Assembly (NCBI GenBank): GCA_964484575.1
Contig: CAZAGP010000279.1
Coordinates: 1 to 26,333 of the forward strand
DNA from: an uncultured Candidatus Bathyarchaeia archaeon
Lineage (GTDB): Archaea; Thermoproteota; Bathyarchaeia; 40CM-2-53-6
Reading direction: 5' to 3'
DNA length: 26,333 bases
The notes beneath the pieces were generated by a model that saw nothing but the letters and a program-made list of their open reading frames with translations, searched no databases and was not told the origin of the DNA. This document shows, piece by piece, positions 1 to 14,978 of this stretch (position 1 is the stretch's first letter; every line of letters starts with the position of its first letter). The position numbers were made by a program, and so were the translations under genes.

Positions 1-113
1 TCCAATTGGTCACGAAGAACTTCGAGAAGCGTGTAAGCCGGTGGACATTTCACTTTAATCGATTGCCCGTTTAGCTGGAAACGTATGTCGTGCTCCACCC
101 GCACTGGACTCAC
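1..113 (-). CDS. 5' fragment of a (2Fe-2S)-binding small subunit, xanthine dehydrogenase / CoxS-CutS family; runs off the left edge
   Basis: Manual translation from GTG at 113: MSPVRVEHDIRFQLNGQSIKVKCPPAYTLLEVLRDQL, open to base 1. Fits the usual CoxS-type N-terminus (I.F.LNG...V.P...LL..LR..L), which is normally followed by LTGxKxGC. The cysteines lie outside the window. Confidence 0.7.
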   Translation of the reverse strand, partial: MSPVRVEHDIRFQLNGQSIKVKCPPAYTLLEVLRDQL

Positions 114-264
114 TTCCGTATTCTAGACCTAAGGATACGCAAATATGTGCCTCTTAACCGTTGACTGAATTCGATCAATCTCCGTCCGGGGATAAACTGA
201 ACTGACGTAACTTCGTTAATCTATTTCGAAAGGCTCTTTGCCATCGTCACATTCTGCTTATGTC

Positions 265-1293
265 ATGTCGCGTGTAGCTCTTTATCTACAGGATAAGCAC
301 CAAGTTCGTGAAGAGCTTGAGTTTGTCCAATATGCTGAGAAGAAGGGTTTCGAGGCAATTTGGCACGCCGAATCACGATTAGCACGAGACGCTATCACTC
401 CCCTAGCTGCAATGGCTGTGGTCACAGAAAGGATCAAACTGGGAACGGGTGTGATCAACAATTGGACAAGAAACGTTGGTCTATGCGCTGCCACTTTTCT
501 CACATTAGACGAGCTCTCCGGCGGCAGGGCTCTTTTAGGCTTAGGAGCCTGGTGGGACCCGCTTGCTTGGAAGGTTGGGATAGAGCGAAAGAAACCGATC
601 AGAGCCATGCGTGAGTACTGTACTGTCCTTCAACGTCTTTTCAGAATGGAAAATGTGAGCTTCGATGGTGAGTTCGTACGAGTGCGTGACATTCGACTCG
701 ACGTCGTATATGGGGATCCGCAATCTCCGCGGAAAATTCCAATTTACATCGGAGCCACCGGATGGGATATGATCGAACTTACTGGCGAGATTGCGGACGG
801 CCTCCTTCTAAATTACCTTGTATCGCCAGGGTACAATGAGAGAGCGCTGGACCACCTGAAAGCGGGTGCTATGAAAGGAGATCGAAATTGGCAAGAGATA
901 GATCGTCCACAACTCATCGTCTGTTCTCTCGACGAGGACGCAGACAAAGCATTAGATGACGCACGACCACTTGTTGCGCAATATCTTGGCCAGCAACCTC
1001 ATATAGCGAAAGCTAGTGGAGTCAAGGAGAGTTTGATCGAAGAGGTTAAATCTGCTCTGGGTGGTTGGCCTGCAAAGCCGGGTGGATTAAAGGAAGCTCA
1101 ACTTCTCATCGATGACAACCTGGTTAGACTCATAACTGCCAGTGGCACTGCAGATGATTGCCTGAAGAAAGTGGAGGAGTACAAGAATACTGGATGCACG
1201 TGCCCCATTCTGTATCCGCTGGGAGAAGACGTCCGGGCGATGATTGACGTATTCCAAGTTCAACATCAGCAACCTGGTCCGTTGGTTGCTTAA
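265..1293 (+). CDS. LLM-class (luciferase-like) oxidoreductase, Mer-like, probably F420-dependent
   Basis: [56 protein letters not shown] motifs. ATG at 265 preferred over TTG at 238. Confidence 0.85.
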
Positions 1294-1323
1294 TCTGACT
1301 GATGCGGCACGACTTCATGTATG

Positions 1324-2172
1324 CTAGCCGCTTTCCCAAAGTGATCTGAAATACTCTCTTGACCTGACGGCATCCTTATACGACGTGAAAACCTCAAAAG
1401 TAATGGTCATGTCGTAGCCAATTTCCTTAAGCCATCTGACAACCTTCTTGAAGTCTATAATACCAGAACCGAGCGGCAAATGCTCGTCTAGTTCTCCGTG
1501 ATTATCGTGTATGTGGATATGTCTCAGTCGAGGAGAAAACCGTTTCAGATAAGCCTCGATTCTACTCATACCACCTTCAATGAACGCATGTGCGATATCC
1601 AGGTGGCAATTCAGGTCAGACACACTCTCCATGACGTGTGAATAATTTGCCAAGCCACCTGTTCCGTAGTCTCCAACGGGGACGTTCTCCAACATCAACC
1701 CAATACGCCTTGATTTGCCATACCTACAAAGTTCATTCATTGCGGTCGAAAAATTGTCAAGGAAAATGTCTCGAGACTCTTTGGTATCACCAACGCGGCC
1801 GAGCTTTCCGTAGAAGTGAAAATTGAGCAGCTCAAGTTTAAGCTGTGAGGCAGTTCGGATCATGGTTCTTGCTTCATCTATCCAGCCTCTCCGCGCCCTT
1901 ACGTGGGATGAACCAAACTGGACCCAGTATGCCGTATGGCCGATTGCAAACATTTCATTAGCGGACAGTAATTCCAATATTCGTTTTCGCTGGTGCGTCA
2001 AGATCGAAGGAGTAGCACTCGGTTCTTCTATTCCTATTTCCGCAAAATCGAAACCCAGCCTTTTGAATCGGATGATCTCGTCGGGCACTGGTAGAATTGG
2101 GTCCGTTAACATTCCGAACTTAGGAATCGGAATATCTGAGTTCAATGCTGGTTGATGGAGATGGAACTTCAC
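1324..2172 (-). CDS. Sugar-phosphate isomerase/epimerase family protein (xylose-isomerase-like / AP-endonuclease-2 TIM barrel)
   Basis: Metal-ligand pattern LENV, HLDIAHA, HIHIHDN..DEHLPLGSG, TFEVF. The true start may be TTG at 2145. Confidence 0.8.
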   Translation of the reverse strand: MKFHLHQPALNSDIPIPKFGMLTDPILPVPDEIIRFKRLGFDFAEIGIEEPSATPSILTHQRKRILELLSANEMFAIGHTAYWVQFGSSHVRARRGWIDEARTMIRTASQLKLELLNFHFYGKLGRVGDTKESRDIFLDNFSTAMNELCRYGKSRRIGLMLENVPVGDYGTGGLANYSHVMESVSDLNCHLDIAHAFIEGGMSRIEAYLKRFSPRLRHIHIHDNHGELDEHLPLGSGIIDFKKVVRWLKEIGYDMTITFEVFTSYKDAVRSREYFRSLWESG

Positions 2173-2359
2173 GAGGCACCCGGCTTATGTGAAACTTTCT
2201 ATCAAGCCTTATCACGGTCGAGCACAGAAACAGTTTACCGCCACAAAAACGAGCTCTGAAGCTTCATAGGTACAACACCGAGTGGGCAGAAAGTCGAATC
2301 AACGCAAAAATGCGTACGGACATTGGGCCGTATTGGGCCTTCGGCTAAGTTTAACTACG

Positions 2360-2375
2360 TATGGGGCACCCAATA
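2360..2375. promoter_or_regulatory. Imperfect palindromic operator copy 1 (TATGGGG-CA-CCCAATA)
   Basis: One mismatch to TATTGGG-NN-CCCAATA; sits between the TATA-like TTTAAC and the padR start. Confidence 0.6.
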
Positions 2376-2388
2376 TGTTGCGAGAACA

Positions 2389-2712
2389 TTGCGGGATGAA
2401 AGTGAGCATTTATGCTGCGACATGCGTGGAATGCTCTCGTTTCTGCTACTCTGGCTATTATGCAAACGACCCATGTACGGCCAAGAATTAGCTGAAGAAA
2501 TTGCAAAACGTAGAGGCGACAAGCCCAATCCGGGAACGATCTATCCGGCTCTGAAGGAGTTGCACAAGCGTGGATTGGTTCAAATGCGCAGTGAAGGGCG
2601 CAAGACGATCTATGAGTTAACGAGTGAAGGACAGAATGGTGTGATGGAGGCGTCAATTTACTTCTGTAGAGTATTCGGAGAAGTCTTCCGTTCTCCAGCA
2701 CAACAAGATTAA
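2389..2712 (+). CDS. PadR-family transcriptional regulator with an N-terminal Cys-Cys
   Basis: RGMLSFLLLWLL..PMYGQEL...PNPGTIYPALKEL...GLV.....RKTIYELT is the PadR wHTH signature. In-frame TTG at 2389 lies about 35 nt after TTTAAC. Confidence 0.9.
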   Translation: MRDESEHLCCDMRGMLSFLLLWLLCKRPMYGQELAEEIAKRRGDKPNPGTIYPALKELHKRGLVQMRSEGRKTIYELTSEGQNGVMEASIYFCRVFGEVFRSPAQQD

Positions 2713-2716
2713 CCAT

Positions 2717-2732
2717 TATTGGGTGTCCGATA
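2717..2732. promoter_or_regulatory. Imperfect palindromic operator copy 2 (TATTGGG-TG-TCCGATA)
   Basis: Two mismatches to the consensus; immediately upstream of the AT-rich TATA stretch before the wHTH gene. Confidence 0.6.
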
Positions 2733-2753
2733 TATTTATTAATCAATCATGAA

Positions 2754-2769
2754 TATTGGGTGTCCAAGT
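2754..2769. promoter_or_regulatory. Imperfect palindromic operator copy 3 (TATTGGG-TG-TCCAAGT)
   Basis: Shares an identical 12-mer (TATTGGGTGTCC) with copy 2; lies between the TATA stretch and the likely start at 2776/2779. Confidence 0.55.
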
Positions 2770-2775
2770 TTAAGA

Positions 2776-3375
2776 TTGGTGAAAATCTTGCCTGAAGGGG
2801 ATGAACTAGATCTACGGCGAGGCGACTGGCAGGTACTCGACGCGTTTCATGATGCCGAATCGAGTCTTGCATTTCAAGGCCTCAAACGCCGGCTGGGAAT
2901 GCACCAAGAAACCCTGTCCCGTGCCCTCCAACGTTTAGCGGATGACAACCTGGTCGAACGTACCGAGGATGGGTATCGGCTTACTCAGCATGGTTCAGAG
3001 ATCACTCACATACCGGCACGGGGACACTCTACGAAAGGCACTAGTCTCCTTGAGACATATCTTCCGTCAGATGTGCCAGCAACCGATGTGATTTCGAGAT
3101 TGAAATATTCTTGGTTCAGCAGACTTCGCTGGCTGGGTTATTCGAACAATGAGAATGAAACGTTACTCACCTGGGTTACAGATGACGGTAACACTCAAGT
3201 GCGAGCCCGATTCAAGAACAATCATCTGTCGATTGAAATCGACACTGAAGATGGAGAAAACTCCAACATCGCAATCAAATCGGCTCATGAATTAGCGGCT
3301 CGCATAATTCGTGAGTATCAAAATGTACAGAATACTCGAACAGCACAAACGGTACACACGACGCAGAGCTCCTGA
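2776..3375 (+). CDS. Winged-helix DNA-binding protein with an uncharacterised C-terminal domain
   Basis: FQGLKRRLGMHQETLSRALQRL....LVER..DGYRLT is a wHTH. TTG 2776 or GTG 2779 preferred because the ATG 2749 extension contains the operator repeat. Confidence 0.75.
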   Translation: MVKILPEGDELDLRRGDWQVLDAFHDAESSLAFQGLKRRLGMHQETLSRALQRLADDNLVERTEDGYRLTQHGSEITHIPARGHSTKGTSLLETYLPSDVPATDVISRLKYSWFSRLRWLGYSNNENETLLTWVTDDGNTQVRARFKNNHLSIEIDTEDGENSNIAIKSAHELAARIIREYQNVQNTRTAQTVHTTQSS

Positions 3376-3413
3376 TAGATTAGTCGCATGTGATTCAGCT
3401 AATTCTAATGAAG

Positions 3414-3444
3414 ACTGGAGCCGACGCACCCGCCGGCTCACCAG
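3414..3444. terminator. GC-rich hairpin between convergent genes (possible terminator or stability element)
   Basis: CTGGAGCCG / CGGCTC-A-CCAG stem, 10 bp with one bulge, 10-nt loop. Confidence 0.3.
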
Positions 3445-3473
3445 CAACCTAGTAATTCAACCACAGTGATCGA

Positions 3474-5270
3474 TTACTGGATGATTGGATCGACGAACTT
3501 GAAATTGACCGTGTCCAGCATCCCCTTATCTGTTATTCGCAATTTTGGAATGACTGAGAGCGTTGTCATAGCTAAATTCATGTACGGGGATGGAAGCGTG
3601 CAGCCCAACGTGACCCAAGCGTCTCTTAATAGGTCCACTTCCTGAACCACTGATTCGACAGGTTGGTCGGACATAATCCCTGCGATTGGTAGCGGAACGG
3701 TAGCAAGCACCTTTCCTTTGCGAGCAACTACCATCCCTCCTCCGCTCTTAATGACCTCGTTAGCAGCGATTAGCATCTCTTCTTCAGATGCACCCGCGAC
3801 GACCAGATTGTGACTATCATGTGCCACGGTTGAAGCTACTGCTCCTTCTCTTATCCCAAATCCTTTCACAAACCCGATCGATTTGTTGCCTGTGCCCTTG
3901 TGTCTTTCGAATACTGCAATCTTCAACACATCTTCGTCCACGTTAGCGTATACTCGACCATCTTTCGATGGGGCTTCCGCTTCCAAATTATCTGTGTAGG
4001 CGCTGGCCGGGATTATTCCGATAGCTCTCACCCTCACCGTTCGCTGGGATGTTTTCGATTTTATCGTGAAGTCATCCAGGGTGGGAGATGACTTGAGCAC
4101 GATCGACTTGCGAGTGAATTCGGGAAGTTTCGGAGAAGTAATGTTTGCTATCAGCTTCCCACCCTGCGAAACCACCTGTCCATTAGCAATCACCGTTCCA
4201 ATCCTCACGGTTGACAACCTGTCGAGAATTATCATGTCAGCAAGCCTAGCAGGTGCTATGCTTCCTAGATTTCTGGAGCATTCATAGTGTTCTGCTACGT
4301 TAATCGTTGCCATCTGGATCGCTCGAATCGGGTCAACGCCCTCTTCGATTGCTCGTCGCACAACGTGATCGACATGTCCATCAGTGATAATCGAATGTGG
4401 TTCCCTGTCATCCGTGACTAGGCAAATGTGCCTCGAGTCTAACTTTTCTTCTGTAATCGCGCGCACTGTATCAGCAACATCGCGCCACGCGGAGCTTTCT
4501 CGTAGCATAACGTACATTCCTAACCGAAGTTTTTGCACTGCTTCAATCTTCTTAGTAGATTCATGGCATGAAGTTATCCCGCTAGCAACGTACGCAACCA
4601 GGTCTCGGTCCAGAAGATTGACCGCGTGTCCTTCCACCACGCGGCCAGCTTTCAGAGTTGCGGCAAGTTCCCCGTGAACTTGTGGATCACTTGAGATTAC
4701 GCCAGGATAATTCATTATCTCACCGAGCGCGACCACTCCATTCCATTTTAACGCCTCTTCAACTTCCGCGGTGGTTATGCTTCCGCCTGTTGTCTCAAAA
4801 CCTGGAGCGGCAGGAACACATGAAGGGAAGGTTATTAGGACCTTCAACGGCAAATTTCGCGATTCATCTAGGAAGAATCGCACGCCACTCAAGCCTAACA
4901 CGTTGGCGATCTCATGGGGGTCTGCGAAAACGGTAGTTGAACCATGAGGGAGAACTGCTCTAGCTAATTCTGTGGCCGTAACCATCGCGCTTTCAATGTG
5001 CATGTGCCCGTCAATGAATCCTGGAACAAGATATCTACCCGCCGCCTCGATCACTTGTGTCGTCGGCCCGATAGTATGCTCAGCATGCCCAATGAAAGCG
5101 ATTCGATCCTTCTTTACTGCTACATCTTGCTCTTCAATGATTTCTCCAGAATTTACGTTAACTAATGAAACGTTCCGCACAACCAGGTCAGCCTTCAATT
5201 TGCCCGTCGCGGTGTCCACAAGCGTGCGGGTCATCTCGTGCAGGCGCGTTCTACCCTCAAACTCGAACAA
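3474..5270 (-). CDS. ade: Adenine deaminase
   Basis: 598 aa; GFIDGHMHIES (HxH), DPHEIANV, EGHA, CHE, VTDD and the C-terminal GA.ASTVAHDSHN...LPLPIAGIMS domain typical of AdeC. Confidence 0.92.
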   Translation of the reverse strand: MFEFEGRTRLHEMTRTLVDTATGKLKADLVVRNVSLVNVNSGEIIEEQDVAVKKDRIAFIGHAEHTIGPTTQVIEAAGRYLVPGFIDGHMHIESAMVTATELARAVLPHGSTTVFADPHEIANVLGLSGVRFFLDESRNLPLKVLITFPSCVPAAPGFETTGGSITTAEVEEALKWNGVVALGEIMNYPGVISSDPQVHGELAATLKAGRVVEGHAVNLLDRDLVAYVASGITSCHESTKKIEAVQKLRLGMYVMLRESSAWRDVADTVRAITEEKLDSRHICLVTDDREPHSIITDGHVDHVVRRAIEEGVDPIRAIQMATINVAEHYECSRNLGSIAPARLADMIILDRLSTVRIGTVIANGQVVSQGGKLIANITSPKLPEFTRKSIVLKSSPTLDDFTIKSKTSQRTVRVRAIGIIPASAYTDNLEAEAPSKDGRVYANVDEDVLKIAVFERHKGTGNKSIGFVKGFGIREGAVASTVAHDSHNLVVAGASEEEMLIAANEVIKSGGGMVVARKGKVLATVPLPIAGIMSDQPVESVVQEVDLLRDAWVTLGCTLPSPYMNLAMTTLSVIPKLRITDKGMLDTVNFKFVDPIIQ

Positions 5271-5402
5271 GGTAAACCCGCAATTATAACGTCTTGAAGA
5301 TTTAAGAAAGCCCTTGTTGCGGTTGACGCTAGATCATTAGTTTTCAAGCTCTACGTACTAGTGAGGCATTGAGCTCGAATGTAGTGATGGTTCTACAGCA
5401 TG

Positions 5403-5436
5403 TATTATAAAACGCGTAGGGTGCAGCTTTACGCGT
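5403..5436 (+). promoter_or_regulatory. TATA box (TATTATAAAA) followed by an inverted repeat ACGCGTA-N11-TACGCGT
   Basis: TATA at 5403-5412, about 35-40 nt before GTG 5446; 7-bp arms at 5412-5418 and 5430-5436. Confidence 0.5.
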
Positions 5437-5445
5437 GATCAGGAC

Positions 5446-6837
5446 GTGAGCTCATTACTGGTGACCGGTGGAACTCTAATTACGATGGATACTCACAGGC
5501 GCATAATCACCGATGGCGGTATCCTGATTGAAGGCTCCCGAATATCGAAAATAGGCAAATCATCTGAAGTGAAACGTGAGTCGAGCGCGGAATTTGAAAT
5601 CGATGCCAAAGGAATGGTAATTCTGCCAGGGCTCATTGATGTTCACGTGCACCTCGCGCAAGCCATGTTGCGAGGATGCGCAGATGATACTTCACTGATC
5701 GATTGGCTCCAGAAGTTCGTTTGGCCTCTGCAAGGGAATTACGATGAACATGATGGCAAGGCAAGCGCCGAACTCTGCATGCTTGAAATGATCAAGTCTG
5801 GTACGACCACCTTCTTGGAAACGCATGTGCACAGACGCTACGGGTTCGACGGAATTGCGAAAAGCGTAGAGAGCAGTGGAATGCGCGGCATCCTAGCTAA
5901 GACAGTGATGAGCCTTCCTAGCTATGGTAGCCAGCAGAACATCATGCACCCAGGCATGATCGAAGACGGTGAGACATGCCTAAGGGAGGTTGAGGAGTAC
6001 TTCAAGAGATGGAATGGGAAGGCTGATGGTCGAATCAAAGTCTGGTACGGAGCAAGGTCACTGGGAGGGTGTACACCTGAACTCTATAGGAAGATAGCAG
6101 AGGGCGCAAAACGATTAGGAACAGGAGTAACGATGCATTTGGACGAAGTGCCCCAGGATGCAGAATATACTCGAAGAGAATTCAATAAATTGCCCGCGGA
6201 ATTTATGGACGAAGTGGGACTTACTGGTCCAAACGTTGTGTATGCTCATGGAGTTTGGTTGACTGAACCGGAATGGAAGATTCTGGCTGAGAAAGGAGCA
6301 ACAGTCGCTCACTGTCCGTCTTCTAACATGAAATTGGCTTCTGGAATCGCAAAGGTTCCTGAGATGATTAAGAGTGGGGTTAACGTGGGATTAGGATGTG
6401 ACGGGGGCCCTAGCAATAATTCATACGACATGATTCGTGAGATGAAGTTGGCCTCACTCGCTCAGAAAGCAAGATTACTCAACCCGCTTGTAATGGACGC
6501 TGAGACAGTTCTCGAACTAGCTACCATCAACGGAGCTAGGGCATTAGGGGTGGATAAGGAAATCGGCTCGTTAGAAGTTGCAAAGAAAGCCGATCTAACG
6601 CTCGTATCGTTACGGCAACCCCACCTAGTTCCAGCACACAATCCGGTCTCCCATTTGGTGTACGCCGCATCAGGATCAGACGTTGACACGGTCATAATTG
6701 ATGGACGAATTATAATGAAGAATCGTCAAGTGCTGACTCTCGATGAAGAGAAGATTATTCAAGAAGCTAACGAGCGTGGAACAAGGCTCTTGGCGAGAGC
6801 TGGAGTCACGATTAAACCCAAATGGGGATACGTTTGA
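5446..6837 (+). CDS. Metal-dependent amidohydrolase (MtaD / SsnA / guanine-deaminase-like superfamily)
   Basis: LPGLIDVHVH (HxH), MHLDE (HxxE), AHGVW, HCPSSNMKL, GLGCDG, GKKAD-like KKADL. Substrate cannot be assigned from motifs. Confidence 0.85.
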   Translation: MSSLLVTGGTLITMDTHRRIITDGGILIEGSRISKIGKSSEVKRESSAEFEIDAKGMVILPGLIDVHVHLAQAMLRGCADDTSLIDWLQKFVWPLQGNYDEHDGKASAELCMLEMIKSGTTTFLETHVHRRYGFDGIAKSVESSGMRGILAKTVMSLPSYGSQQNIMHPGMIEDGETCLREVEEYFKRWNGKADGRIKVWYGARSLGGCTPELYRKIAEGAKRLGTGVTMHLDEVPQDAEYTRREFNKLPAEFMDEVGLTGPNVVYAHGVWLTEPEWKILAEKGATVAHCPSSNMKLASGIAKVPEMIKSGVNVGLGCDGGPSNNSYDMIREMKLASLAQKARLLNPLVMDAETVLELATINGARALGVDKEIGSLEVAKKADLTLVSLRQPHLVPAHNPVSHLVYAASGSDVDTVIIDGRIIMKNRQVLTLDEEKIIQEANERGTRLLARAGVTIKPKWGYV

Positions 6838-6858
6838 CCGTTGGGTCTAAACTTGCGT

Positions 6859-6876
6859 CGGGGTGCGTGCACTCCG
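6859..6876. terminator. Short hairpin between convergent amidohydrolase and carbamoyltransferase genes
   Basis: CGGGGTGC-GT-GCACTCCG, one G-T pair. Confidence 0.25.
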
Positions 6877-6927
6877 GAATGCTTCCTATCGCTCTATTGT
6901 ATTCTTGGCGATGGTGCATCATCAACG

Positions 6928-7953
6928 CTAAGTGCGCTTTCCACTCATTGTAAGCGCTAGTACCGCCATCTTCGTGTACATTCCGTTCTCCGCCTGAGGG
7001 TAGATGACCGAGTGTCGTCCATCCAGCACTTCATCTGTAGCCTCTTCACCTCGCAGAACTGGCAGCACGTGAGTAACTATCGCTCGCTTACTCATCTTAT
7101 CAAGTAAATCCTGCGTGAGAGTCCAGTTTCGGTACTTCTCATGGATCTCCAGCTCTCGGTCCTTGCCGAACCTGCTTGCTCCTATTGAAAGAAGTTCATT
7201 CGTAGCCCAGTTTCTAGGAAAAACCGCGTTGGCTCCATCCAAAGCGGATTCGAGATCGTTAGTCACTGTGAATTCTGCTCCCTGGGCCAGGGCATTCGAC
7301 CTTGATGCATCAATTATTTTGGGGTCTAATTCGAATCCAGGGGGATGAGCCAGTACCACGTCCATACCGAAACGTGACATTATCAGTGCCTCTTCGTTAA
7401 TGCTGCAACGACCTCGAAAGCTCTTCGCGTATCCCCACATGATCACGTATTTCTTCCCTTTCACCTTGCTAAGGGCTTCTTCAGTCGTCATTAAATCAGC
7501 AAGGCCCTGTGTAGGGTGATACGTGCAGCATGCCATGTTAATTACCGGAATCTCAGCATGTTTCGCATACTCTCGGATGGTGGAGACTCCTACTCCAGAT
7601 ACGTAGTCGATTGCGGAGTCTAGGATTCGTACGCCCAAACCATGCCCATACTTCTCGTACATCTTAGCCACATCTCTGGCAGCCTCCCCAGAACCTAAAC
7701 GCGTAGTGGAAACGTCAATATACTGAGCATGTCCACCAAGATACGTCATTCCCGCTTCAAACGCTGCCCGTGTCCTAGTCGACGGAGCGTAGAAGAGCAT
7801 GAAGAATGTTTTAGCATTGAGTACGGGGAGGACTCTGCCGCGGTGATACTGTCGTTTCATCTCCTTGGCAGTCTTTAGGGTTGCTACAAGCTCATCAATC
7901 GACCAGTCTTGTGTGGTTATTAGGTCGCGCCCGCCCAAATCTACTTTAACCAA
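6928..7953 (-). CDS. Carbamoyltransferase-fold protein 1 (OTCase/ATCase superfamily, YgeW-like, non-canonical)
   Basis: STRT, HPTQ and HVLP motifs. TTG at 7953 follows GAAGGTGGG (SD-like), giving 341 aa; the track's extension to 8286 overlaps carbamate kinase. Confidence 0.88.
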   Translation of the reverse strand: MVKVDLGGRDLITTQDWSIDELVATLKTAKEMKRQYHRGRVLPVLNAKTFFMLFYAPSTRTRAAFEAGMTYLGGHAQYIDVSTTRLGSGEAARDVAKMYEKYGHGLGVRILDSAIDYVSGVGVSTIREYAKHAEIPVINMACCTYHPTQGLADLMTTEEALSKVKGKKYVIMWGYAKSFRGRCSINEEALIMSRFGMDVVLAHPPGFELDPKIIDASRSNALAQGAEFTVTNDLESALDGANAVFPRNWATNELLSIGASRFGKDRELEIHEKYRNWTLTQDLLDKMSKRAIVTHVLPVLRGEEATDEVLDGRHSVIYPQAENGMYTKMAVLALTMSGKRT

Positions 7954-8082
7954 TCTTTCCCACCTTCGGCGTCCACTATGACGGACGAGAAATTCTGCTA
8001 AATAGATGTTGCTAAACCCCAGCCAACGAGTCAAAGGTCTTAAGGGCCGACAGAGACCGGGTATACCACTTCCTGAGAGAGT

Positions 8083-9045
8083 GTGAGAGTATTGCCCGAT
8101 TCGTTGATCGTCATAGCACTTGGCGGGAACGCCCTTCTGCAAAGAGGACAGAAAGGAACCGTTGAGGAACAATATGAAAACATGAGGAGGACCGTTCCGA
8201 AGATAGCTGACCTGATCCAGAGAGGTTACAAAGTGGTTCTGACGCATGGGAACGGGCCGCAGGTTGGAGCAACCCTCCTTCGTCACGAGGCTGCTAAAGC
8301 TATCGTACCGCCATTCCCGCTAGATGCCTGCGGAGCAGAAACGCAAGGCTTCATCGGGTATATGATTCAGCAAGTATTGAGGAATGAGCTTAAGGCACGA
8401 GAAATTGAAAAATTCGTCGTAACGGTAGTCACACGCGTAATTGTCGATAAACACGATTTGGCCTTTCAGAATCCGACGAAGCCAATCGGACCATTCTATT
8501 CAAAGGATGAAGCGACTAAATTGAAGGAACAGAAACCCGATCTGGTGATTAAGGAAGATGCGGGTCGAGGCTACAGGCGAGTCGTACCTTCTCCTGATCC
8601 CAAGATAATTGCAGAGCGGACAGCTATACGTGCCCTCGTCGACGCCGGATTCGTTGTTATTGCTTGCGGAGGAGGAGGCATTCCCATAATCGAAGAGGAA
8701 ACCCAGACAGTGGGAGTGGAGGCAGTGATTGACAAGGACCTCGCGGCTCAGCGCTTAAGTACCCTGATCGGGGCACAAATCCTGATAATCCTCACCGACG
8801 TGGACGGGGCGTACATGAACTACGGAACCTCAAAACAAGAAATAATCAGACAAATCACTTCTGGAAAATTGAAAAACCATCTGAAAGAAGGACAGTTCAA
8901 GGAAGGCAGTATGGCACCAAAGGTTGAAGCTGCAATTCGATTCGTGGAGAGCGGTGGCGAACGCGCAGTTATTGCTGATCTCGGAAGTCTAGTTGAAGCT
9001 CTCGAAGGAAAAGCAGGGACGCAGATCACAGTGCCAAAAGCTTAA
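8083..9045 (+). CDS. arcC: Carbamate kinase
   Basis: ALGGNAL, THGNGPQVG, KPIGPF, EDAGRGYRRVVPSP, GGGGIP, EAVIDKD, GSMAPKVEAA. Alternative start TTG 8092. Confidence 0.95.
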   Translation: MRVLPDSLIVIALGGNALLQRGQKGTVEEQYENMRRTVPKIADLIQRGYKVVLTHGNGPQVGATLLRHEAAKAIVPPFPLDACGAETQGFIGYMIQQVLRNELKAREIEKFVVTVVTRVIVDKHDLAFQNPTKPIGPFYSKDEATKLKEQKPDLVIKEDAGRGYRRVVPSPDPKIIAERTAIRALVDAGFVVIACGGGGIPIIEEETQTVGVEAVIDKDLAAQRLSTLIGAQILIILTDVDGAYMNYGTSKQEIIRQITSGKLKNHLKEGQFKEGSMAPKVEAAIRFVESGGERAVIADLGSLVEALEGKAGTQITVPKA

Positions 9046-9083
9046 TTTAATCACAACTAATTCAGCGAAGGGTGGTAATTGAA

Positions 9084-10154
9084 ATGCCGTCATTCGTTGG
9101 TTTCTGGAAAGGCAAAGACTTTCTTGATACGAATGATTTTTCTCAGGAAGAGATCAAGAAGGTTCTTGATGCAGCCGACATTCTGAGAAAGAATTTCAGA
9201 TCACGTAAGAAACACCAGTATCTTTCCGGTCAAACACTCTTCATGCTTTTCTATAATCGATCACTCAGAACCAGAAACTCTTTCGAAGGAGGAATGTACC
9301 AGTTAGGAGGACATGCACACTTCCTCAGCCCTCAAGACGTCTATACTCCTGCCCTACCCGAAGACATGGTCGCCTATCAGACTGAAGCGATTTCGGACGT
9401 AGCGAGAGTCCTAAGTCGATACGGTGACGCAATAGCGATCAGAATCTATGGTGATGCAGCGAAATGGGTGATCGGACGAGGTCACAAGGTAGTTCAGGAA
9501 TTCGCAATAAACGCTACAATTCCTGTGCTTAACATGGAAGACGACATGTACCATCCGTTCCAGGCATTAGCCGACGTCCAGGCAATGCGGGCTGCTATTC
9601 CTAAACTCGCTGGGAAGAAACTTGTAGTTTCCTATGCTTACTCTGGCGGACTGAAGCCATTAGCTGTACCGCAAAGCGAAGTTCTCATCGGAACTCAAAT
9701 GGGAATGGAAGTTGTGCTCGCCCACCCACCCGGATTTGAACTAGAAGAGGTAGTGCTGAAAGCTGCCAAAGCGAACGCGGACAGATATGGTGGAGATTTC
9801 AAAATCGTAACTGACATGAAAGAAGCATTTGACGGAGCGGACGTGGTGTATCCTAAAGCGTGGTCACCAAAGAACTACTTTCCACCGCACAGAGCCGAAC
9901 TAGACAAGCAAGGCGCGATGTCGCACCAAGACAAGTACAAGAGCTGGATTTGCACTCAAGAGATGATGGATCTCACAAACAAGGGAAAATACATGCATTG
10001 CGGACCCGCAGACAGAGGCCAAGAAGTTACAGATGACGTGATCGACAACATGAACTATTCACTGTACTTCGAAGAAGCCGAAGATCGTCTCCACGTGCAG
10101 AAGGCGATTATGGCGATGGTGATGGGCGGTCGTCCCTCTCGTCGTCGGAAATGA
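9084..10154 (+). CDS. Carbamoyltransferase-fold protein 2 (AOTCase/SOTCase/YgeW-like, non-canonical)
   Basis: SLRT, HPFQ, YPKAW, MHCGP and EAEDRLH motifs. ATG 9084 follows AGGGTGG (SD-like). Confidence 0.88.
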   Translation: MPSFVGFWKGKDFLDTNDFSQEEIKKVLDAADILRKNFRSRKKHQYLSGQTLFMLFYNRSLRTRNSFEGGMYQLGGHAHFLSPQDVYTPALPEDMVAYQTEAISDVARVLSRYGDAIAIRIYGDAAKWVIGRGHKVVQEFAINATIPVLNMEDDMYHPFQALADVQAMRAAIPKLAGKKLVVSYAYSGGLKPLAVPQSEVLIGTQMGMEVVLAHPPGFELEEVVLKAAKANADRYGGDFKIVTDMKEAFDGADVVYPKAWSPKNYFPPHRAELDKQGAMSHQDKYKSWICTQEMMDLTNKGKYMHCGPADRGQEVTDDVIDNMNYSLYFEEAEDRLHVQKAIMAMVMGGRPSRRRK

Positions 10155-10663
10155 AGACGAGTCGAACGCCGGACCAAACCCCGATTGTTCTAGCAAACTG
10201 GGGGAGGCGAATTATCGCTTGGTTCGTAGACTATGTCATAATCAGTATATTATTGGGATATTTCCAGCTTGAGACAGTAGAGACCAGAATGTTTCCGGCT
10301 GCTTTGCTACCGAAGGCTCCAGGAACGGATATTTCGGTTTGGTCGCCCTTATCGATTCTAATCTTCTTTCTGTACTTCACATTCTCAGAATGGTACCTTG
10401 GAAGGTCAATAGGGCAACTACTATTGAATGTTCGAATTGTTGACGTCCAAGGGAAAGCCCTCAGTTTACGCGCATCGGCAATTCTAGGCATAGGTAAATC
10501 GAACCCACTTTTCCTGTTATTTGATTGCCTCATTGGTCGAGCTTACAGACCAAGTCGCGAACTGCGGCAAAGATTAACGAATAGAATTTCCAATACAATT
10601 GTCATATTCATCGGAGAGTCAGCCAGAACGATTGAGCAAGACGGTTACATGAAGGAACCCTGA
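10151..10663 (+). CDS. RDD-family membrane protein
   Basis: LANWGRRIIAWFVD, hydrophobic segments, GRSIGQLLL.VRIVD and RQRL...ISNTIV. ATGA overlap with the upstream stop. Confidence 0.8.
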   Translation: MKTSRTPDQTPIVLANWGRRIIAWFVDYVIISILLGYFQLETVETRMFPAALLPKAPGTDISVWSPLSILIFFLYFTFSEWYLGRSIGQLLLNVRIVDVQGKALSLRASAILGIGKSNPLFLLFDCLIGRAYRPSRELRQRLTNRISNTIVIFIGESARTIEQDGYMKEP

Positions 10664-10742: not shown

Positions 10743-11687
10743 ATGGCTGACTACGACGTAGTCATTATCGGATCAGGTCCAGCAGGTTTGACTGCTGCAG
10801 TATACTCTGCTCGAGCACTTGTGAGAACTCTTGTAATTGCTGGCAGAGTTTCTGGCGGACAACTCATGTTAACCAGTACAGTTGAGAACTTCCCCGGATT
10901 TTCCAATGGAATCCAAGGACCGGATCTCATGGTAGAAATGCGAAAGCAAGCTGAACACTTCGGAGCGGAAATTGTTGACGACGATGTGGAATCCGTAGAT
11001 TTCAAAAAGAAATTGAAGCGAATTGTCTTTGGTAAACGATCGGTAACTTCAGATGCCGTGATAATAGCAACAGGTTCCTCTGCGAAATGGCTTGGAATAC
11101 CGTCGGAAGCGAAATTGCGCGGTCGCGGCGTCTCAAGTTGTGCGACATGTGATGGATACTTCTTCCGAAACAAACCTGTGGCAGTAGTTGGCGGGGGCGA
11201 TACCGCTATCGAAGAAGCATTGTTCTTAACCAAATATGCAACAGAAGTTGAGATAATCCATCGGCGCGATAAGCTTCGAGCAACTAAAATTATGCAACGA
11301 AGAGCCTTATCAGAGCCTAAGATTCTATTCCGCTGGGATTCTGTCGTTGATGAGATTCTTGGTCAGAACAAAGTGGAAGGCCTCAAGATCAGGAACTTGA
11401 AGACGGGTGAAGTGTCAATGTTACCAGTCGAGGGAGTTTTTATGGCTATAGGATTTCAGCCAAACACGAAAGTCTTCGAAGGCCAGATCCAACTTGACGA
11501 AAAAGGGTACGTAGTAGTTACAAACAATACGGAGACAAGCGCAGAGGGCGTATTTGTCGCGGGAGACGTCCACGATTACAAATACAGGCAGGCCATTACC
11601 GCTGCGGGAGAAGGCTGTAAGGCTGCAATTGACGCTCTATCCTACCTAGACAGGCAGAAGGAAATTGCCATCACGACTCATGAATGA
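10743..11687 (+). CDS. trxB: Thioredoxin-disulfide reductase
   Basis: GSGPAG FAD motif, GGQL, GVSSCATCDG (CxxC), VGGGDTA.EEA, FVAGDV...YRQAITAAG.G. Confidence 0.95.
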   Translation: MADYDVVIIGSGPAGLTAAVYSARALVRTLVIAGRVSGGQLMLTSTVENFPGFSNGIQGPDLMVEMRKQAEHFGAEIVDDDVESVDFKKKLKRIVFGKRSVTSDAVIIATGSSAKWLGIPSEAKLRGRGVSSCATCDGYFFRNKPVAVVGGGDTAIEEALFLTKYATEVEIIHRRDKLRATKIMQRRALSEPKILFRWDSVVDEILGQNKVEGLKIRNLKTGEVSMLPVEGVFMAIGFQPNTKVFEGQIQLDEKGYVVVTNNTETSAEGVFVAGDVHDYKYRQAITAAGEGCKAAIDALSYLDRQKEIAITTHE

Positions 11688-11697
11688 TTATCGGATT

Positions 11698-11814
11698 CTA
11701 TAGGCCTAATCCTTTGAACAGAAATCTTCGTTGGCAGACGGGGCAATATGAATTCTCACGTAAGATGGTCTGGCCGCAATATCCACATCTGATATAGACA
11801 GAAGCTATTTGCAT
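11698..11814 (-). CDS. Putative 38-aa one-domain zinc-finger microprotein (CGYCG...CPVC)
   Basis: Manual translation ATG 11814 to TAG 11698: MQIASVYIRCGYCGQTILRENSYCPVCQRRFLFKGLGL. Two CxxC knuckles 10 aa apart, entirely intergenic, below the ORF-track cutoff. Confidence 0.6.
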   Translation of the reverse strand: MQIASVYIRCGYCGQTILRENSYCPVCQRRFLFKGLGL

Positions 11815-12111
11815 CCGACATCAGTCTGAACGAGAGTTATCTTCCGATTTTGATGTTTCTTCGTCGAAACAAGCAACAATCGACGTATAGAACCTATAAT
11901 TATACAATCTTCTATCAAAGTTAGTGAACACTCATCATTCGAGAATCATCACATCTTTCATAGACGATGATGGCAAAGTTAATCGACAGGCATCTCGTCA
12001 CCAACTTACGAAACGTTAAGGCTAGTGATACCCTATCCGATAGAATTCAATCTAGAATCAAGTTTCGCTCGAAAGTGTCTTTTACCTAACTGCACTCATA
12101 GTGAACGGCTT

Positions 12112-14121
12112 GTGAGGTTTACGCTACCACATAGAATTACCTACGATCTAATGCCCGTCCTAACGCCTTTGATAATGTACACGGTATTGTCAGGCTTCAC
12201 AGCCATTTTCATATATGGAGTGTACCGTCGTCTTAGAATATACTTTCGAGGAGTTACCGATTTTCAAACAAACGAATTAGGCTCGCGAGTCAAAAGAGTA
12301 TTAGCGAATGTGCTTGCTCAACGTAAAGTTGTGAGGAAACACTATCCAGGTTTGATGCACTCGCTTATCTACGTCGGGTTCCTAGTTCTCTTAATCGGAA
12401 CTTTACTTGTTTTCCTAGACTACGACATTTGGATGACTCTCTTTCACGAGCAAATCCTAGTAGGCAACTTCTATCTGGTCTACGAGACGTCGCTCGATGC
12501 TTTTGGGTTAGTTGCGATCACAGGCCTTGTATTTGCGATATTTCGCCGCTCTGTAACGAAACCATCAAACTTGCCCAGTTCAAAGGATGACCTGTTCATC
12601 TTCTCAATCCTTCTCGTAATACTCTTTACAGGATACATAATGGAAGGCATTCGGCTAGCCGTAGATAATCCACCTTGGGCCAAATGGTCATTCGTAGGAT
12701 ACCGCGTGGCACTTCTTCTTAACGCCTCCTACGGTAAACAAGTCGCTAATTTCTACCCAGCGCTTTGGTGGTTCCATGCTGTCTTGGCATTCACAGCTGT
12801 TGCAGCTATCCCATATACAAAACTGTTTCATTTGGTAACGTCACCATTAAACGCATTATTTGCTGATCAACGACCGATCGGACAGCTGAGCACACCCTTT
12901 AACCTACGGGAAGTTCTAGCGTCCGGCAACTTTGACGTTAAAATGGGCGCCGCTGCTATTAGTGAATTTTCCTGGCGAGAAAGACTATCTTTCGACTCCT
13001 GCACTACCTGCGGCAGGTGTAGCAATGTCTGCCCTGCAACCGCCGCAGGAACCCCACTGTCACCTATGTACTTGATACTCAAACTCCGAAATGTAATGCT
13101 AACAGAAAAAGAAACGGGTACGTCGCTAATAGGACGAATCATCAACCAAGAGGAGTTATGGGCGTGTACCACATGCAGGGCGTGCGTCCATGAATGTCCA
13201 GTGTTGATCGATCACATCGATGCGATCGTTGACATGAGACGTCATCTTGTAGGAGAAGGAAAACTGGATCGGCCCAAGAGAGATTTGCTTAATAATTTAA
13301 CCAACTCTACGAATCCATACGGACTTCCCTCAAATGATCGCCTTAACTGGACGAAAGACCTTGACGTCAAGACCGTAAGAGAACAACCTGAATTTGAACT
13401 CCTCTACTGGGTAGGCTGTTCTGGTTCATACGATCCCAGAAATCAAGCAGTATCTCGAGCATTGGTTAAGATACTGAACGCAGCTAAGGTGCGGTTCTCT
13501 GTTCTAGGAAATGAGGAGAAGTGCAATTGTGAAGTCGCAAGGCGTCTAGGCGAGGAGGGACGGTTCCAACAGGCAGCACTCGAACTAATTGAAGTGTTCG
13601 AAAAGTACAATGTTAAGAAAGTTCTCACCCAATGTCCCCACTGCTTCAACACTTTCAAGAATGAATATCCTGAATTCGGCGCGTCTTTTCAGGTAATCCA
13701 TCATACACAATTCATCGCCGAGCTCCTCGAGTCAAAGCGCCTGATACTAAGAAGAGGAGCCGAACAGGTCGCTACTTTTCATGATCCATGCTATCTCGGA
13801 AGATACAATTCCGTGTTTGAAGCTCCCAGATCGATACTCTCGTCAATGGCGCAAGTGACAATTCGAGAGATGCCTCGTCACGGTAAGGATAGTTTCTGCT
13901 GCGGAGCTGGCGGAGCGAATTTTTGGTATAAAGTGGACCAAAAAAGAAGGACCAACCTGATACGTTTCGAAGAAGCAGCAGAGACAGGGTCGAATATAAT
14001 TGTAACTGCGTGTCCCTTTTGCACATCAATGTTTGAGGACGCTGCTCTATCGTTCGAATCTACAAATTCAACTAGAGTGAAGGATATTGCCGAACTCGTA
14101 GCAGACTTAATCGATTCTTAA
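12112..14121 (+). CDS. Membrane-anchored Fe-S oxidoreductase with NarI-like TM domain, two [4Fe-4S] motifs and CCG domains (FadF / HdrF-like, heterodisulfide-reductase-related)
   Basis: Several N-terminal TM helices with His (MHSLI, WWFHAV, LFHLVT); CTTCGRCSNVCP and CTTCRACVHECP; WVGC, CPHC, HDPCYLGR, CCGAGG, ACPFC. Start uncertain (GTG 12112 or ATG 12151 preferred over 12025). Confidence 0.88.
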   Translation: MRFTLPHRITYDLMPVLTPLIMYTVLSGFTAIFIYGVYRRLRIYFRGVTDFQTNELGSRVKRVLANVLAQRKVVRKHYPGLMHSLIYVGFLVLLIGTLLVFLDYDIWMTLFHEQILVGNFYLVYETSLDAFGLVAITGLVFAIFRRSVTKPSNLPSSKDDLFIFSILLVILFTGYIMEGIRLAVDNPPWAKWSFVGYRVALLLNASYGKQVANFYPALWWFHAVLAFTAVAAIPYTKLFHLVTSPLNALFADQRPIGQLSTPFNLREVLASGNFDVKMGAAAISEFSWRERLSFDSCTTCGRCSNVCPATAAGTPLSPMYLILKLRNVMLTEKETGTSLIGRIINQEELWACTTCRACVHECPVLIDHIDAIVDMRRHLVGEGKLDRPKRDLLNNLTNSTNPYGLPSNDRLNWTKDLDVKTVREQPEFELLYWVGCSGSYDPRNQAVSRALVKILNAAKVRFSVLGNEEKCNCEVARRLGEEGRFQQAALELIEVFEKYNVKKVLTQCPHCFNTFKNEYPEFGASFQVIHHTQFIAELLESKRLILRRGAEQVATFHDPCYLGRYNSVFEAPRSILSSMAQVTIREMPRHGKDSFCCGAGGANFWYKVDQKRRTNLIRFEEAAETGSNIIVTACPFCTSMFEDAALSFESTNSTRVKDIAELVADLIDS

Positions 14122-14183
14122 TCGATTCATCTCAATTTTATTAGTTTGAACGAGTCTTTGGAGGTTTCGCTCGGCGGGGAATC

Positions 14184-14975
14184 GTGGTAAATATCATAGT
14201 GCTCGTTAAGCAAGTTCTACAAACTGCTGATCTCAAAATAGACAAAACAACCAAGGCCATAGTGACGCAGGGAGTTGCTCGAGTAATAAGTGAGACTGAT
14301 AAGAATGCACTGGAGGAATCGATTCGAATCAAGGAGAAAAACGGAGGGAAGATCACAGCAATAAGTATGGGTCCCGCTGAAGCAAGAGAAGCGCTGAGAG
14401 AGGCGCTAGCGATGGGGGCGGACGAAGCAATTCTCCTGACCGATCCACGATTTGAAGGATCAGATGCACACGCAGTCGCGAGTGTGCTAGCCGCAGCAGT
14501 CACAAAGATAGCGGACTACGATTTGATAATCTGTGGCGCGTATTCTGAAGACATGTTCGCGTTTCAAGTAGGACCAAGACTAGCAGAGGCGTGTAATTTG
14601 CCTCAGTTGACTTACGTAACCAAGATAGAATTGCAGGGCAGCCAGATAATCGTCGAGAGGGATTTGGAGAATGAACGCCAGGTCGTCGAAGGTAGACTGC
14701 CCTGCTTGGTAACGGTTGTGAGAGAAATCAACGAACCCAGACTCCCTACACTGATGGCAATTATGGCTTCATCGAAGAAGCCGACCTCTGTATGGTCGGC
14801 AGATGACCTACGACTTACGGAGAGCGAGTTGGGATACAACGGGTCTCTCGACGAATTGCTAAGAAGTACCGTTACCACGGGGGAAAGAAAACGTACAATC
14901 CTACAAGGAGAAGCAAAAGACGCAGTCTCCAAGCTTACTCGAGCTCTTCAACAGGAAGGTTTCTTGAGGGGTTAA
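14184..14975 (+). CDS. etfB: Electron transfer flavoprotein subunit beta
   Basis: IIVLVKQV, D.NALEE, LAMGADEAILL, QVGPRLAE, INEPRLP. Confidence 0.93.
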   Translation: MVNIIVLVKQVLQTADLKIDKTTKAIVTQGVARVISETDKNALEESIRIKEKNGGKITAISMGPAEAREALREALAMGADEAILLTDPRFEGSDAHAVASVLAAAVTKIADYDLIICGAYSEDMFAFQVGPRLAEACNLPQLTYVTKIELQGSQIIVERDLENERQVVEGRLPCLVTVVREINEPRLPTLMAIMASSKKPTSVWSADDLRLTESELGYNGSLDELLRSTVTTGERKRTILQGEAKDAVSKLTRALQQEGFLRG

Positions 14976-14978
14976 GGG

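Follow-up and report, generated by a model that had tools for sequence, protein, structure and literature searches.

The stretch analyzed here (the window, 26,333 nucleotides) is the entire contig CAZAGP010000279.1 (C279) of a metagenome-assembled genome (MAG) of the Bathyarchaeia (G000; 1.72 Mb, 315 contigs, 80% complete, 0.9% contamination). The genome was assembled from peat, and the DNA of the window was matched in peat metagenomes. Positions 1 to 10,663 contain a group of open reading frames (ORFs) predicted to encode enzymes of purine conversion together with a carbamate kinase and two carbamoyltransferases (Table 1). Combined with two further contigs of the same genome, C309 and C232, this island probably represents an archaeal version of anaerobic purine breakdown of the reductive uric acid (2,8-dioxopurine) type, distributed over two loci. 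The closest public loci labeled Bathyarchaeia encode transferases 91 to 93% identical and a CDC48 98% identical to those of the window, and the right half of the window carries archaeal housekeeping genes, such as those for CDC48, FEN1, and Trm5/TYW2.

The original prediction, which was made from the sequence of the window alone, had listed an XDH-family small-subunit fragment, a luciferase-like (LLM) oxidoreductase, adenine deaminase, an amidohydrolase, carbamate kinase, and two carbamoyltransferases, and all of these were recovered in place. ORFs predicted to encode a TIM-barrel protein and two regulators were additional to that list. The grouping of the window genes exceeds chance, since the same grouping recurs in many genomes. 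The gene for carbamoyltransferase 1 is divergent from the carbamate kinase gene; its start was set at position 7953 from orthologues, and a 452-amino-acid (aa) ORF extending up to position 8286 would overlap the kinase gene. The gene for carbamoyltransferase 2 starts 26 bases 3' of the kinase gene.

Table 1. Predicted genes at positions 1 to 10,663 of the window and ring-opening hydrolase genes on contig C232
Feature	Contig	Coordinates	Strand	Evidence
XDH-family 2Fe-2S small subunit, N-terminal 37 residues, cut by left contig end	C279	3-113	-	Translation
LLM oxidoreductase	C279	238-1293	+	PF00296, 220 bits
Xylose-isomerase-like TIM-barrel protein	C279	1324-2172	-	PF01261, 108 bits
PadR-family transcription regulator	C279	2323-2712	+	PF03551, 50.5 bits
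Winged-helix (MarR/HVO_A0261-like) regulator	C279	2749-3375	+	Pfam
Adenine deaminase	C279	3474-5270	-	TIGR01178, 561 bits (cut-off, 472)
TRZ/ATZ-type amidohydrolase	C279	5446-6837	+	NCBIfam scores and tree
Carbamoyltransferase 1 (group CT-B)	C279	6928-7953	-	PF02729 + PF00185
Carbamate kinase	C279	8083-9045	+	TIGR00746, 430 bits (cut-off, 358)
Carbamoyltransferase 2 (group CT-A)	C279	9072-10154	+	PF02729 + PF00185
RDD-family membrane protein	C279	10151-10663	+	PF06271, 52.6 bits
SsnA-like hydrolase	C232	8863-10257		NF005540, 425 bits (cut-off, 444); 35% identity to E. coli SsnA over 453 residues
Hydantoinase/allantoinase/dihydroorotase-type cyclic amidohydrolase, 455 aa	C232	10378-11745		29% identity to HyuA

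Carbamoyltransferases and carbamate kinase

The bin contains five genes of the OTC fold, including the two TRANSFERASES of the window. Phylogenetic analysis placed a gene on contig C180 with E. coli ArgI and a gene on contig C249 with PyrB; these are canonical ArgF-type and PyrB-type genes located elsewhere in the genome. The window transferases and their relatives from 80 loci formed two separate, well-supported groups, CT-A (transferase 2) and CT-B (transferase 1), each with archaeal and bacterial members and neither grouping with ArgI, PyrB, or YgeW, the transferase of the E. coli purine cluster. On the basis of this tree, CT-A and CT-B are two old orthologue groups distinct from ornithine carbamoyltransferase (OTCase), aspartate carbamoyltransferase (ATCase), and YgeW.

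The NCBIfam model with the highest score for CT-A was that of acetylornithine carbamoyltransferase (AOTCase; NF003384), with 271 bits against a cut-off of 288 (CT-B, 194 bits). Scores for the ornithine carbamoyltransferase model TIGR00658 were 225 bits for CT-A and 202 bits for CT-B (cut-off, 281), and those for the YgeW model TIGR03316 were 161 and 121 bits, respectively (cut-off, 500), with YgeW models in general giving CT-A 161 to 171 bits against cut-offs of 453 to 500. The best matches of the window transferases among solved structures were AOTCase and Pyrococcus OTCase (170 to 198 bits). Databases are likely to name CT-A and CT-B ornithine or acetylornithine carbamoyltransferases because these are the best-scoring curated models.

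Characteristic motifs were STRTR, HPTQ, FPRNW, HVLP, and QAENG in CT-B and SLRTR, HPFQ, YPKAW, HCGP, and EAEDR in CT-A. The DxxxSMG ornithine loop was absent from both and was replaced by YPKAW in CT-A and FPRNW in CT-B, and the lysine of the AOTCase motif YAKSW was kept in CT-A and was an arginine in CT-B. Since the [YF]P[KR]xW loop is also found in YgeW (YPKSW) and AOTCase (YAKSW), it does not fix the substrate, and motif comparison cannot separate YgeW-like from AOTCase-like specificity. CT-A and CT-B share the OTC fold, the carbamoyl-phosphate motifs, and a [YF]-[PA]-[KR]-x-W loop with both YgeW (knotted; PDB 3q98) and AOTCase (PDB 3kzc and 3m5c). They are only ~30% identical to YgeW, and the SLRTR and HCGP motifs of CT-A and the HVLP and QAENG motifs of CT-B are points of difference from both enzymes.

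A third atypical transferase, of the CT-B type, was found on contig C130 (locus L008, positions 1 to 6558) together with a second XDH small subunit, an LLM gene, and an SsnA-like fragment. The contig is an outlier in its tetranucleotide profile, and its G+C content is 57.7%, against 47.6% in the window. Its transferase nests within the Nitrososphaerales (91% identical to that of locus L052), and its genes are 83 to 91% identical to those of a Nitrososphaerales MAG. C130 is probably misbinned and carries a Nitrososphaerales organism's version of the same cluster, and it was excluded from the inventory. Joining C130 to the left end of the window was ruled out, as the small-subunit fragments of the two contigs span the same residues with different sequences.

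The carbamate kinase of the window, which scored above the TIGR00746 cut-off, is 47% identical to E. coli YqeA and is predicted to convert carbamoyl phosphate and ADP to ATP and carbamate. The original prediction had noted that no arginine or agmatine deiminase is encoded near the kinase, and this held for the genome (80% complete) apart from one unlinked gene: PF04371 had no match, the single PF02274 match was a DDAH-like protein of 264 aa encoded on contig C229 (179 bits; cut-off, 450), and arcA models gave 47 to 50 bits against cut-offs of >400. The DDAH-like amidinotransferase gene directly follows a gene for a protein of the creatinase/prolidase fold (locus L009, C229 11825-13862).

In the arginine and agmatine deiminase pathways, a catabolic OTCase or putrescine carbamoyltransferase (PTCase) acts with carbamate kinase by the same logic, in which phosphorolysis of a ureido group leads to substrate-level phosphorylation. 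The archaeal island differs from these pathways in having no deiminase, in transferases without the ornithine/putrescine loop, and in its purine-related neighbors. The kinase could nevertheless belong to an arginine/citrulline-type pathway in which citrulline, produced for example by the DDAH-like enzyme, would be cleaved by either ArgF or one of the transferases. Although both a DDAH-like and an ArgF-type gene are present, this explanation is extremely unlikely, given that the genome yielded neither an arginine deiminase at the family cut-off nor any agmatine deiminase, that CT-A and CT-B lack the ornithine loop, and that they flank the kinase gene in 41 loci, whereas the DDAH-like gene is unlinked. 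An arginine deiminase elsewhere in the genome, which the original prediction had named as a finding that would account for the kinase without purines, was not found.

Molybdenum hydroxylase, deaminases, and hydrolases

The original prediction had pointed to the left of base 1 as the place to look for the molybdenum and FAD subunits of the XDH-family enzyme, and these are present, on contig C309 (3,986 bases). Positions 3739 to 3986 of C309 overlap positions 1 to 248 of the window (248 bases, 97.2% identity, 7 mismatches), and the mismatches suggest that differences between strains interrupted the assembly inside the small-subunit gene. Beyond the overlap, C309 completes a small subunit of 158 aa, with one residue differing in the part common to both contigs, followed by genes for the FAD subunit and a molybdenum subunit of at least 740 aa. 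The top NCBIfam match of the molybdenum subunit was the xanthine dehydrogenase PucD, with a score of 637 bits, which is less than the equivalog cut-off (784). An XDH-family molybdenum hydroxylase, as found in reductive urate/2,8-dioxopurine clusters, is thus encoded by the C309 gene set. In the related locus L023, the gene order is XDH large subunit, FAD subunit, small subunit, LLM, TIM barrel, amidohydrolase, transferase, kinase, and transferase.

Two deaminase-like proteins are encoded in the window. The adenine deaminase scored above the equivalog cut-off and is predicted to convert adenine to hypoxanthine, the entry step for adenine. Adenine deaminase genes also adjoin XDH-transferase clusters in Nitrososphaerota (loci L046, L052, and L055), where this arrangement appeared independently. 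The top NCBIfam match of the TRZ/ATZ-type amidohydrolase was 5'-deoxyadenosine deaminase (436 bits, below the cut-off of 522), with SsnA models scoring 222 to 228 bits, and in the tree, the protein fell into a separate deaminase-like clade apart from SsnA. This amidohydrolase was therefore ruled out as the SsnA equivalent by both model scores and tree position; it is probably a purine or purine-nucleoside deaminase feeding the pathway. In 13 Bathyarchaeia-type loci, its orthologues (69 to 84% identity) are encoded next to the transferases, often accompanied by an ABC transporter of the BMP/PnrA type; such a transporter was encoded in several Bathyarchaeia loci and in a related genome, G069. 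The BMP/PnrA family takes its name from a purine-nucleoside receptor.

Searching the source genome with the translated E. coli genes of the ygeW-xdhD region revealed putative ring-opening hydrolases on contig C232. The SsnA-like protein fell into a 100/100-supported clade with E. coli SsnA and amidohydrolases of related clusters and scored 406 bits with TIGR03314, the NCBIfam SsnA-family model (cut-off, 455); the SsnA-type ring opener of this genome is consequently encoded outside the window. Divergent from and adjoining the SsnA-like gene is the gene for the cyclic amidohydrolase (TIGR02033, 323 bits; cut-off, 393), for which dihydroorotase, allantoinase, and dihydropyrimidinase models scored alike; the same arrangement was found in at least four of five relatives examined. 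Loci of the C232 type are conserved in five Bathyarchaeia relatives. A gene for MocA was also located beside the SsnA-like gene on C232. MocA is a cytidylyltransferase that matures the cofactor of XDH-family enzymes. Downstream of the SsnA-like gene (locus L093, C232 7143-8847), a fusion of NUDIX and IF-2B (ribose-1,5-bisphosphate-isomerase-like) domains and a 128-aa ORF were found, an arrangement that is kept in five Bathyarchaeia relatives and may point to a connection between purine-base breakdown and the nucleotide/pentose-bisphosphate route of archaea.

The top NCBIfam matches of the LLM oxidoreductase were F420-dependent Mer-type LLM models, all below cut-off. The enzyme is probably F420 dependent, and it is a candidate for the ring-reducing (dearomatizing) enzyme in place of YgfK/UacX. 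CofD was found in the genome. A 64%-identical LLM orthologue is encoded immediately upstream of an SsnA-clade gene in Bipolaricaulota locus L085, and orthologues adjoin SsnA-clade or hydantoinase genes in L085 and L058. An F420-dependent LLM reductase variant has been predicted for Chloroflexota SsnA clusters, in which a putative F420 LLM likewise replaces YgfK/UacX near XDH and SsnA genes; this variant was described for bacteria only and was found through SsnA family IPR017700 (PMC12507026). The archaeal SsnA-like protein scores below the TIGR03314 cut-off, so a survey of the SsnA family may miss it.

Gene neighborhoods and distribution

Relatives of CT-A were found at 80 loci in a scan of one genome per species, and neighboring genes were counted within 10 kb. 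These relatives were encoded in Bathyarchaeia (82 to 93% identity); in Nitrososphaerota, including Caldarchaeales, Nitrososphaerales, and Conexivisphaerales, and in Hadarchaeum (63 to 75% identity for the Nitrososphaerota); and in Bipolaricaulota, Thermotogota, Caldisericota, Chloroflexota, and others (51 to 58% identity). The most frequent neighbors were genes for CT-B (43 of 80 loci), carbamate kinase (41, beside CT-A or CT-B), the XDH-family large subunit (33, in several phyla), and two pyridoxal phosphate (PLP) enzymes, one CysK-like (31) and one ThrC-like (30). Less frequent were those for the window-type TRZ hydrolase (14), SsnA-clade hydrolase (11), hydantoinase (9), LLM (8), adenine deaminase (6), and YgeY (2, weak matches), and neither YgeX nor YgeW was encoded within 10 kb of CT-A at any of the 80 loci. 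The families named in the original prediction thus co-occur across archaea and several bacterial phyla, as it had proposed to examine. In relatives, the two PLP enzymes take the position expected for YgeX. They were ruled out as YgeX, as they fall with cysteine synthase and threonine synthase in NCBIfam; having the same PLP fold as YgeX, they may handle diaminopropionate or albizziin.

Of 121 genomes sampled from the class, exactly the same three (G000, G116, and G069) encoded orthologues of CT-A, of CT-B, and of the SsnA-like protein, which is the pattern expected from a shared pathway. The distributions of the XDH large subunit and the hydantoinase carried no such information: paralogues at 34 to 44% identity were widespread across the class, and a clear orthologue was found only in G116. 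The clearest case is G069, which within 15 kb encodes the SsnA-like protein, CT-A, CT-B, a HyuA-like protein (37% identity to E. coli HyuA), carbamate kinase, a protein with DHO_dh and ferredoxin domains (PreA/UacX type), the ThrC-like and CysK-like enzymes, and a protein with Fer4_20 and Pyr_redox_2 domains (PreT type) that is 36% identical to the matching part of YgfK. Three MtmB-like genes (monomethylamine methyltransferase family) and a URO-D/MtaA-like gene are interleaved with this purine cluster (loci L107 and L108, C1:512798-534139).

These neighborhoods also bear on whether the first 10.7 kb of the window form one unit. The adenine deaminase, the regulators, and the LLM/TIM-barrel pair could instead be chance neighbors of a transferase-kinase module. 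The adenine deaminase, PadR, and winged-helix genes occupy this place only in the closest relatives (for PadR, loci L013 and L014), and Bathyarchaeia differ in the genes located between the XDH genes and CT-B. Chance association is nonetheless very unlikely: adenine deaminase genes lie independently beside the XDH-transferase clusters of Nitrososphaerota, the LLM orthologues of L085 and L058 have an SsnA-clade or hydantoinase gene as a neighbor, and the module is accompanied by XDH genes in several phyla. TIM-barrel orthologues adjoin the LLM gene in the closest relatives (L013, L014, and L023).

Three loci on public contigs labeled Methylomirabilota, Acidiferrales, and Acidoferrum (L012, L017, and L059) have the archaeal gene order and encode proteins 78 to 98% identical to those of the window, in L012 together with an archaeal CDC48. 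These contigs seem to belong to Bathyarchaeia and to have been misbinned.

Predicted pathway of purine breakdown

In E. coli, XdhD forms 2,8-dioxopurine from urate, YgfK carries out the reduction that follows (PMC12507026; bioRxiv 10.1101/2025.04.24.650524), and ring opening produces a compound with two ureido groups, 2,3-diureidopropionate. ATP is obtained from 2,3-diureidopropionate by YgeW, which splits off one ureido group with phosphate, and YqeA, which uses the resulting carbamoyl phosphate (bioRxiv 10.1101/2025.04.24.650524). YgeY then hydrolyzes the second ureido group, and YgeX converts diaminopropionate to pyruvate (PMC12507026; bioRxiv 10.1101/2025.04.24.650524), so that one ATP is gained per purine.

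The archaeal genes would support a related sequence of reactions. Adenine deaminase, and probably the TRZ-type deaminase, would convert aminopurines or their nucleosides to oxopurines, and the PucD-like three-subunit molybdenum hydroxylase of C309 would interconvert hypoxanthine, xanthine, urate, and 2,8-dioxopurine. The F420-type LLM, with F420H2, would reduce the ring in place of YgfK/UacX, and the SsnA-clade hydrolase and hydantoinase of C232 would open the two rings to give a compound with two ureido groups. CT-A and CT-B would each remove one ureido group with phosphate, and the kinase encoded between them would convert each carbamoyl phosphate formed to ATP, yielding up to two ATP per purine. 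Phosphorolysis of both ureido groups would fit the data, given the pair of transferases and the lack of YgeY: with one hydrolase for each of the two rings and one transferase for each of the two ureido groups, the scheme is consistent without YgeY.

The E. coli and Clostridium sporogenes clusters comprise xdhD-ygfM, ygfK, ssnA, hyuA, ygeW, yqeA, ygeY, as well as ygeX (PMC12507026; bioRxiv 10.1101/2025.04.24.650524). They have in common with the archaeal loci an XDH-family molybdenum enzyme, an SsnA-clade hydrolase, a putative hydantoinase-type hydrolase, MocA, and an OTC-fold carbamoyltransferase working with carbamate kinase. In contrast, the archaeal set is split over at least two loci, has adenine deaminase inside the island, lacks YgfK (with the F420-type LLM as a candidate substitute), YgeY, and YgeX, and has CT-A and CT-B in place of YgeW, with ThrC-like and CysK-like enzymes in relatives that were lost in this lineage. 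Both 2025 papers deal with bacteria only, without archaea and without a second transferase (PMC12507026; bioRxiv 10.1101/2025.04.24.650524). A literature search covering the pathway intermediates and Bathyarchaeia with these enzymes returned no description for archaea, and the loci appear to represent an unpublished archaeal variant of the bacterial pathway solved in 2025.

The island is real and conserved, and gene context gives strong support to its reading as a variant of a known pathway type. The purine reading as such is well supported by synteny and co-occurrence. Gene identities, the join to C309, gene order, co-occurrence in genomes, and the RNA pieces were observed here, and the substrates, the F420 dependence, and the assignment of one ureido group to each transferase are inferred. 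The original prediction of a 2,8-dioxopurine-type variant therefore stands in its core, the route through carbamoyl phosphate to the kinase, with the correction that the window amidohydrolase is not the SsnA equivalent.

Several observations weigh against the purine pathway. The activities of the enzymes are predicted from sequence and context. CT-A and CT-B fall below the cut-off of every curated NCBIfam model and resemble YgeW less in sequence than they do AOTCase and archaeal OTCase. E. coli XdhA and XdhD are about equally distant from the XDH large subunit (29 to 30% identity to both), so the reaction of the latter is not fixed by this comparison. Of the components that the original prediction had missed in the window, only a candidate hydantoinase-type gene was found in the source genome, on C232: tblastn with the E. 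coli genes of the ygeW-xdhD region gave no match to YgfK and no convincing one to YgeX, and for YgeY it gave only a generic M20 match (28%, contig C263). The ring openers are not encoded beside the transferases in G000 and most Bathyarchaeia relatives and are 90 to 470 kb apart where they are on one contig. Orthologues of the ThrC-like and CysK-like enzymes are absent from G000 and its two closest relatives (2.3 and 3.1 Mb), which points to loss of these genes in this lineage. The profile of 3 of 121 genomes corresponds to about two or three lineages, as kin are not independent. Finally, carbamate kinase is also encoded in relatives without the transferases, and CarB, the large subunit of carbamoyl-phosphate synthetase, was not found in any of the three carriers (G000, G116, and G069), so that supplying carbamoyl phosphate for biosynthesis may be an additional or alternative role of the kinase.

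Such a biosynthetic role, in which the kinase would produce carbamoyl phosphate without a synthetase and CT-A and CT-B would carbamoylate N-acylornithine or another amine, would account for these last two findings, for the score of CT-A near the AOTCase cut-off, and for the presence of CT-A alone beside housekeeping genes in some Nitrososphaerota. In five further genomes with CT-A standing alone, the locus adjoins Suf and RNA-polymerase genes, which give no functional hint. All five genomes have a CT-B orthologue elsewhere and a PyrB-type gene, however, and four of the five an ArgF-type gene, as G000 has both canonical types. The absence of CarB was ruled out as a mark of the carriers, as CarB was not found in 64 of the 121 sampled genomes, about half of the class and nearly all of them without CT-A and CT-B. 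CT-A and CT-B track SsnA and not arginine genes, and their neighbors are catabolic. The biosynthetic explanation therefore has a very low probability, although the carbamate kinase may well serve both directions, and many Bathyarchaeia may depend on carbamate kinase or on uptake.

A different substrate for the same kind of chemistry is a further alternative. In a reductive breakdown of pyrimidines or another monocyclic N-heterocycle, the LLM or a PreT/PreA pair would reduce the ring, a dihydropyrimidinase-type hydrolase would open it, the transferases would phosphorolyze beta-ureidopropionate and beta-ureidoisobutyrate, and the SsnA-like enzyme would be a deaminase. This would agree with the PreT/PreA-like pair and the dihydropyrimidinase-like gene beside the transferases of G069, with the nearly equal scores of the C232 hydrolase on dihydroorotase, allantoinase, and dihydropyrimidinase models, and with a class-III aminotransferase gene downstream in several Bathyarchaeia loci. 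The PreA-like genes, however, do not argue against purines, as the urate reductase UacX of Clostridioides difficile is itself of the PydA type (PMC12507026). Genes for XDH-family enzymes are neighbors of the transferase genes in 33 loci and those for adenine deaminase in 6, the SsnA-like proteins cluster with their E. coli namesake, and a pair of ring hydrolases with a pair of transferases suits a bicyclic substrate. The substrates of ThrC-like and CysK-like PLP enzymes, moreover, are alpha-amino acids that carry a leaving group in the beta or gamma position, a description that matches diaminopropionate but not beta-alanine. Breakdown of monocyclic compounds is thus unlikely.

A broader proposal for the purine pathway is tentative and falls somewhat short of being probable. 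According to this proposal, an old purine-fermentation route would be common to Bathyarchaeia, Caldarchaeales, and Nitrososphaerales as well as Bipolaricaulota, Thermotogota, and Caldisericota. CT-A and CT-B would phosphorolyze both ureido groups, giving two ATP per purine through one kinase, with an F420 LLM reductase in this lineage, and carbamoyl phosphate might also feed arginine/pyrimidine synthesis where the synthetase is absent.

Bathyarchaeia rank among the most abundant archaea of peat and sediments, and little is known about how they obtain energy. If the purine pathway operates as predicted, ATP-yielding fermentation of purines by substrate-level phosphorylation would let Bathyarchaeia live on nucleic acid remains. 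CT-A and CT-B would then represent new enzyme specificities in a well-studied family and, as a pair, a more energy-efficient form of a gut-bacterial pathway solved only in 2025, with possible use in engineering urate-degrading strains.

Expression of genes in the first 12 kb of the window was examined in three peat metatranscriptomes. Contigs nearly identical to CT-A were found in all three, as were contigs nearly identical to positions 2780 to 3373, in the winged-helix regulator gene, which is apparently transcribed in peat. Pieces matching CT-B were found in one of the three RNA runs, and the gene for thioredoxin reductase was also matched in one. No other part of the first 12 kb was covered, and the adenine deaminase, amidohydrolase, and kinase genes had no match longer than ~30 bases in the three runs. 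RNA libraries may contain DNA, which would weaken this evidence for the island; recovery of the same genes in separate RNA runs argues for transcripts over stray DNA.

Downstream of the transferases, the start of the gene for the RDD-family membrane protein overlaps the CT-A stop by 4 bases. An RDD gene follows CT-A in 15 Bathyarchaeia-type loci, and its product possibly has a role in transport. Positions 10743 to 15953 of the window encode thioredoxin reductase, an HdrD-like membrane Fe-S protein (NarI and CCG domains), and EtfB/EtfA, and the order of these genes after the island is kept in most Bathyarchaeia relatives.

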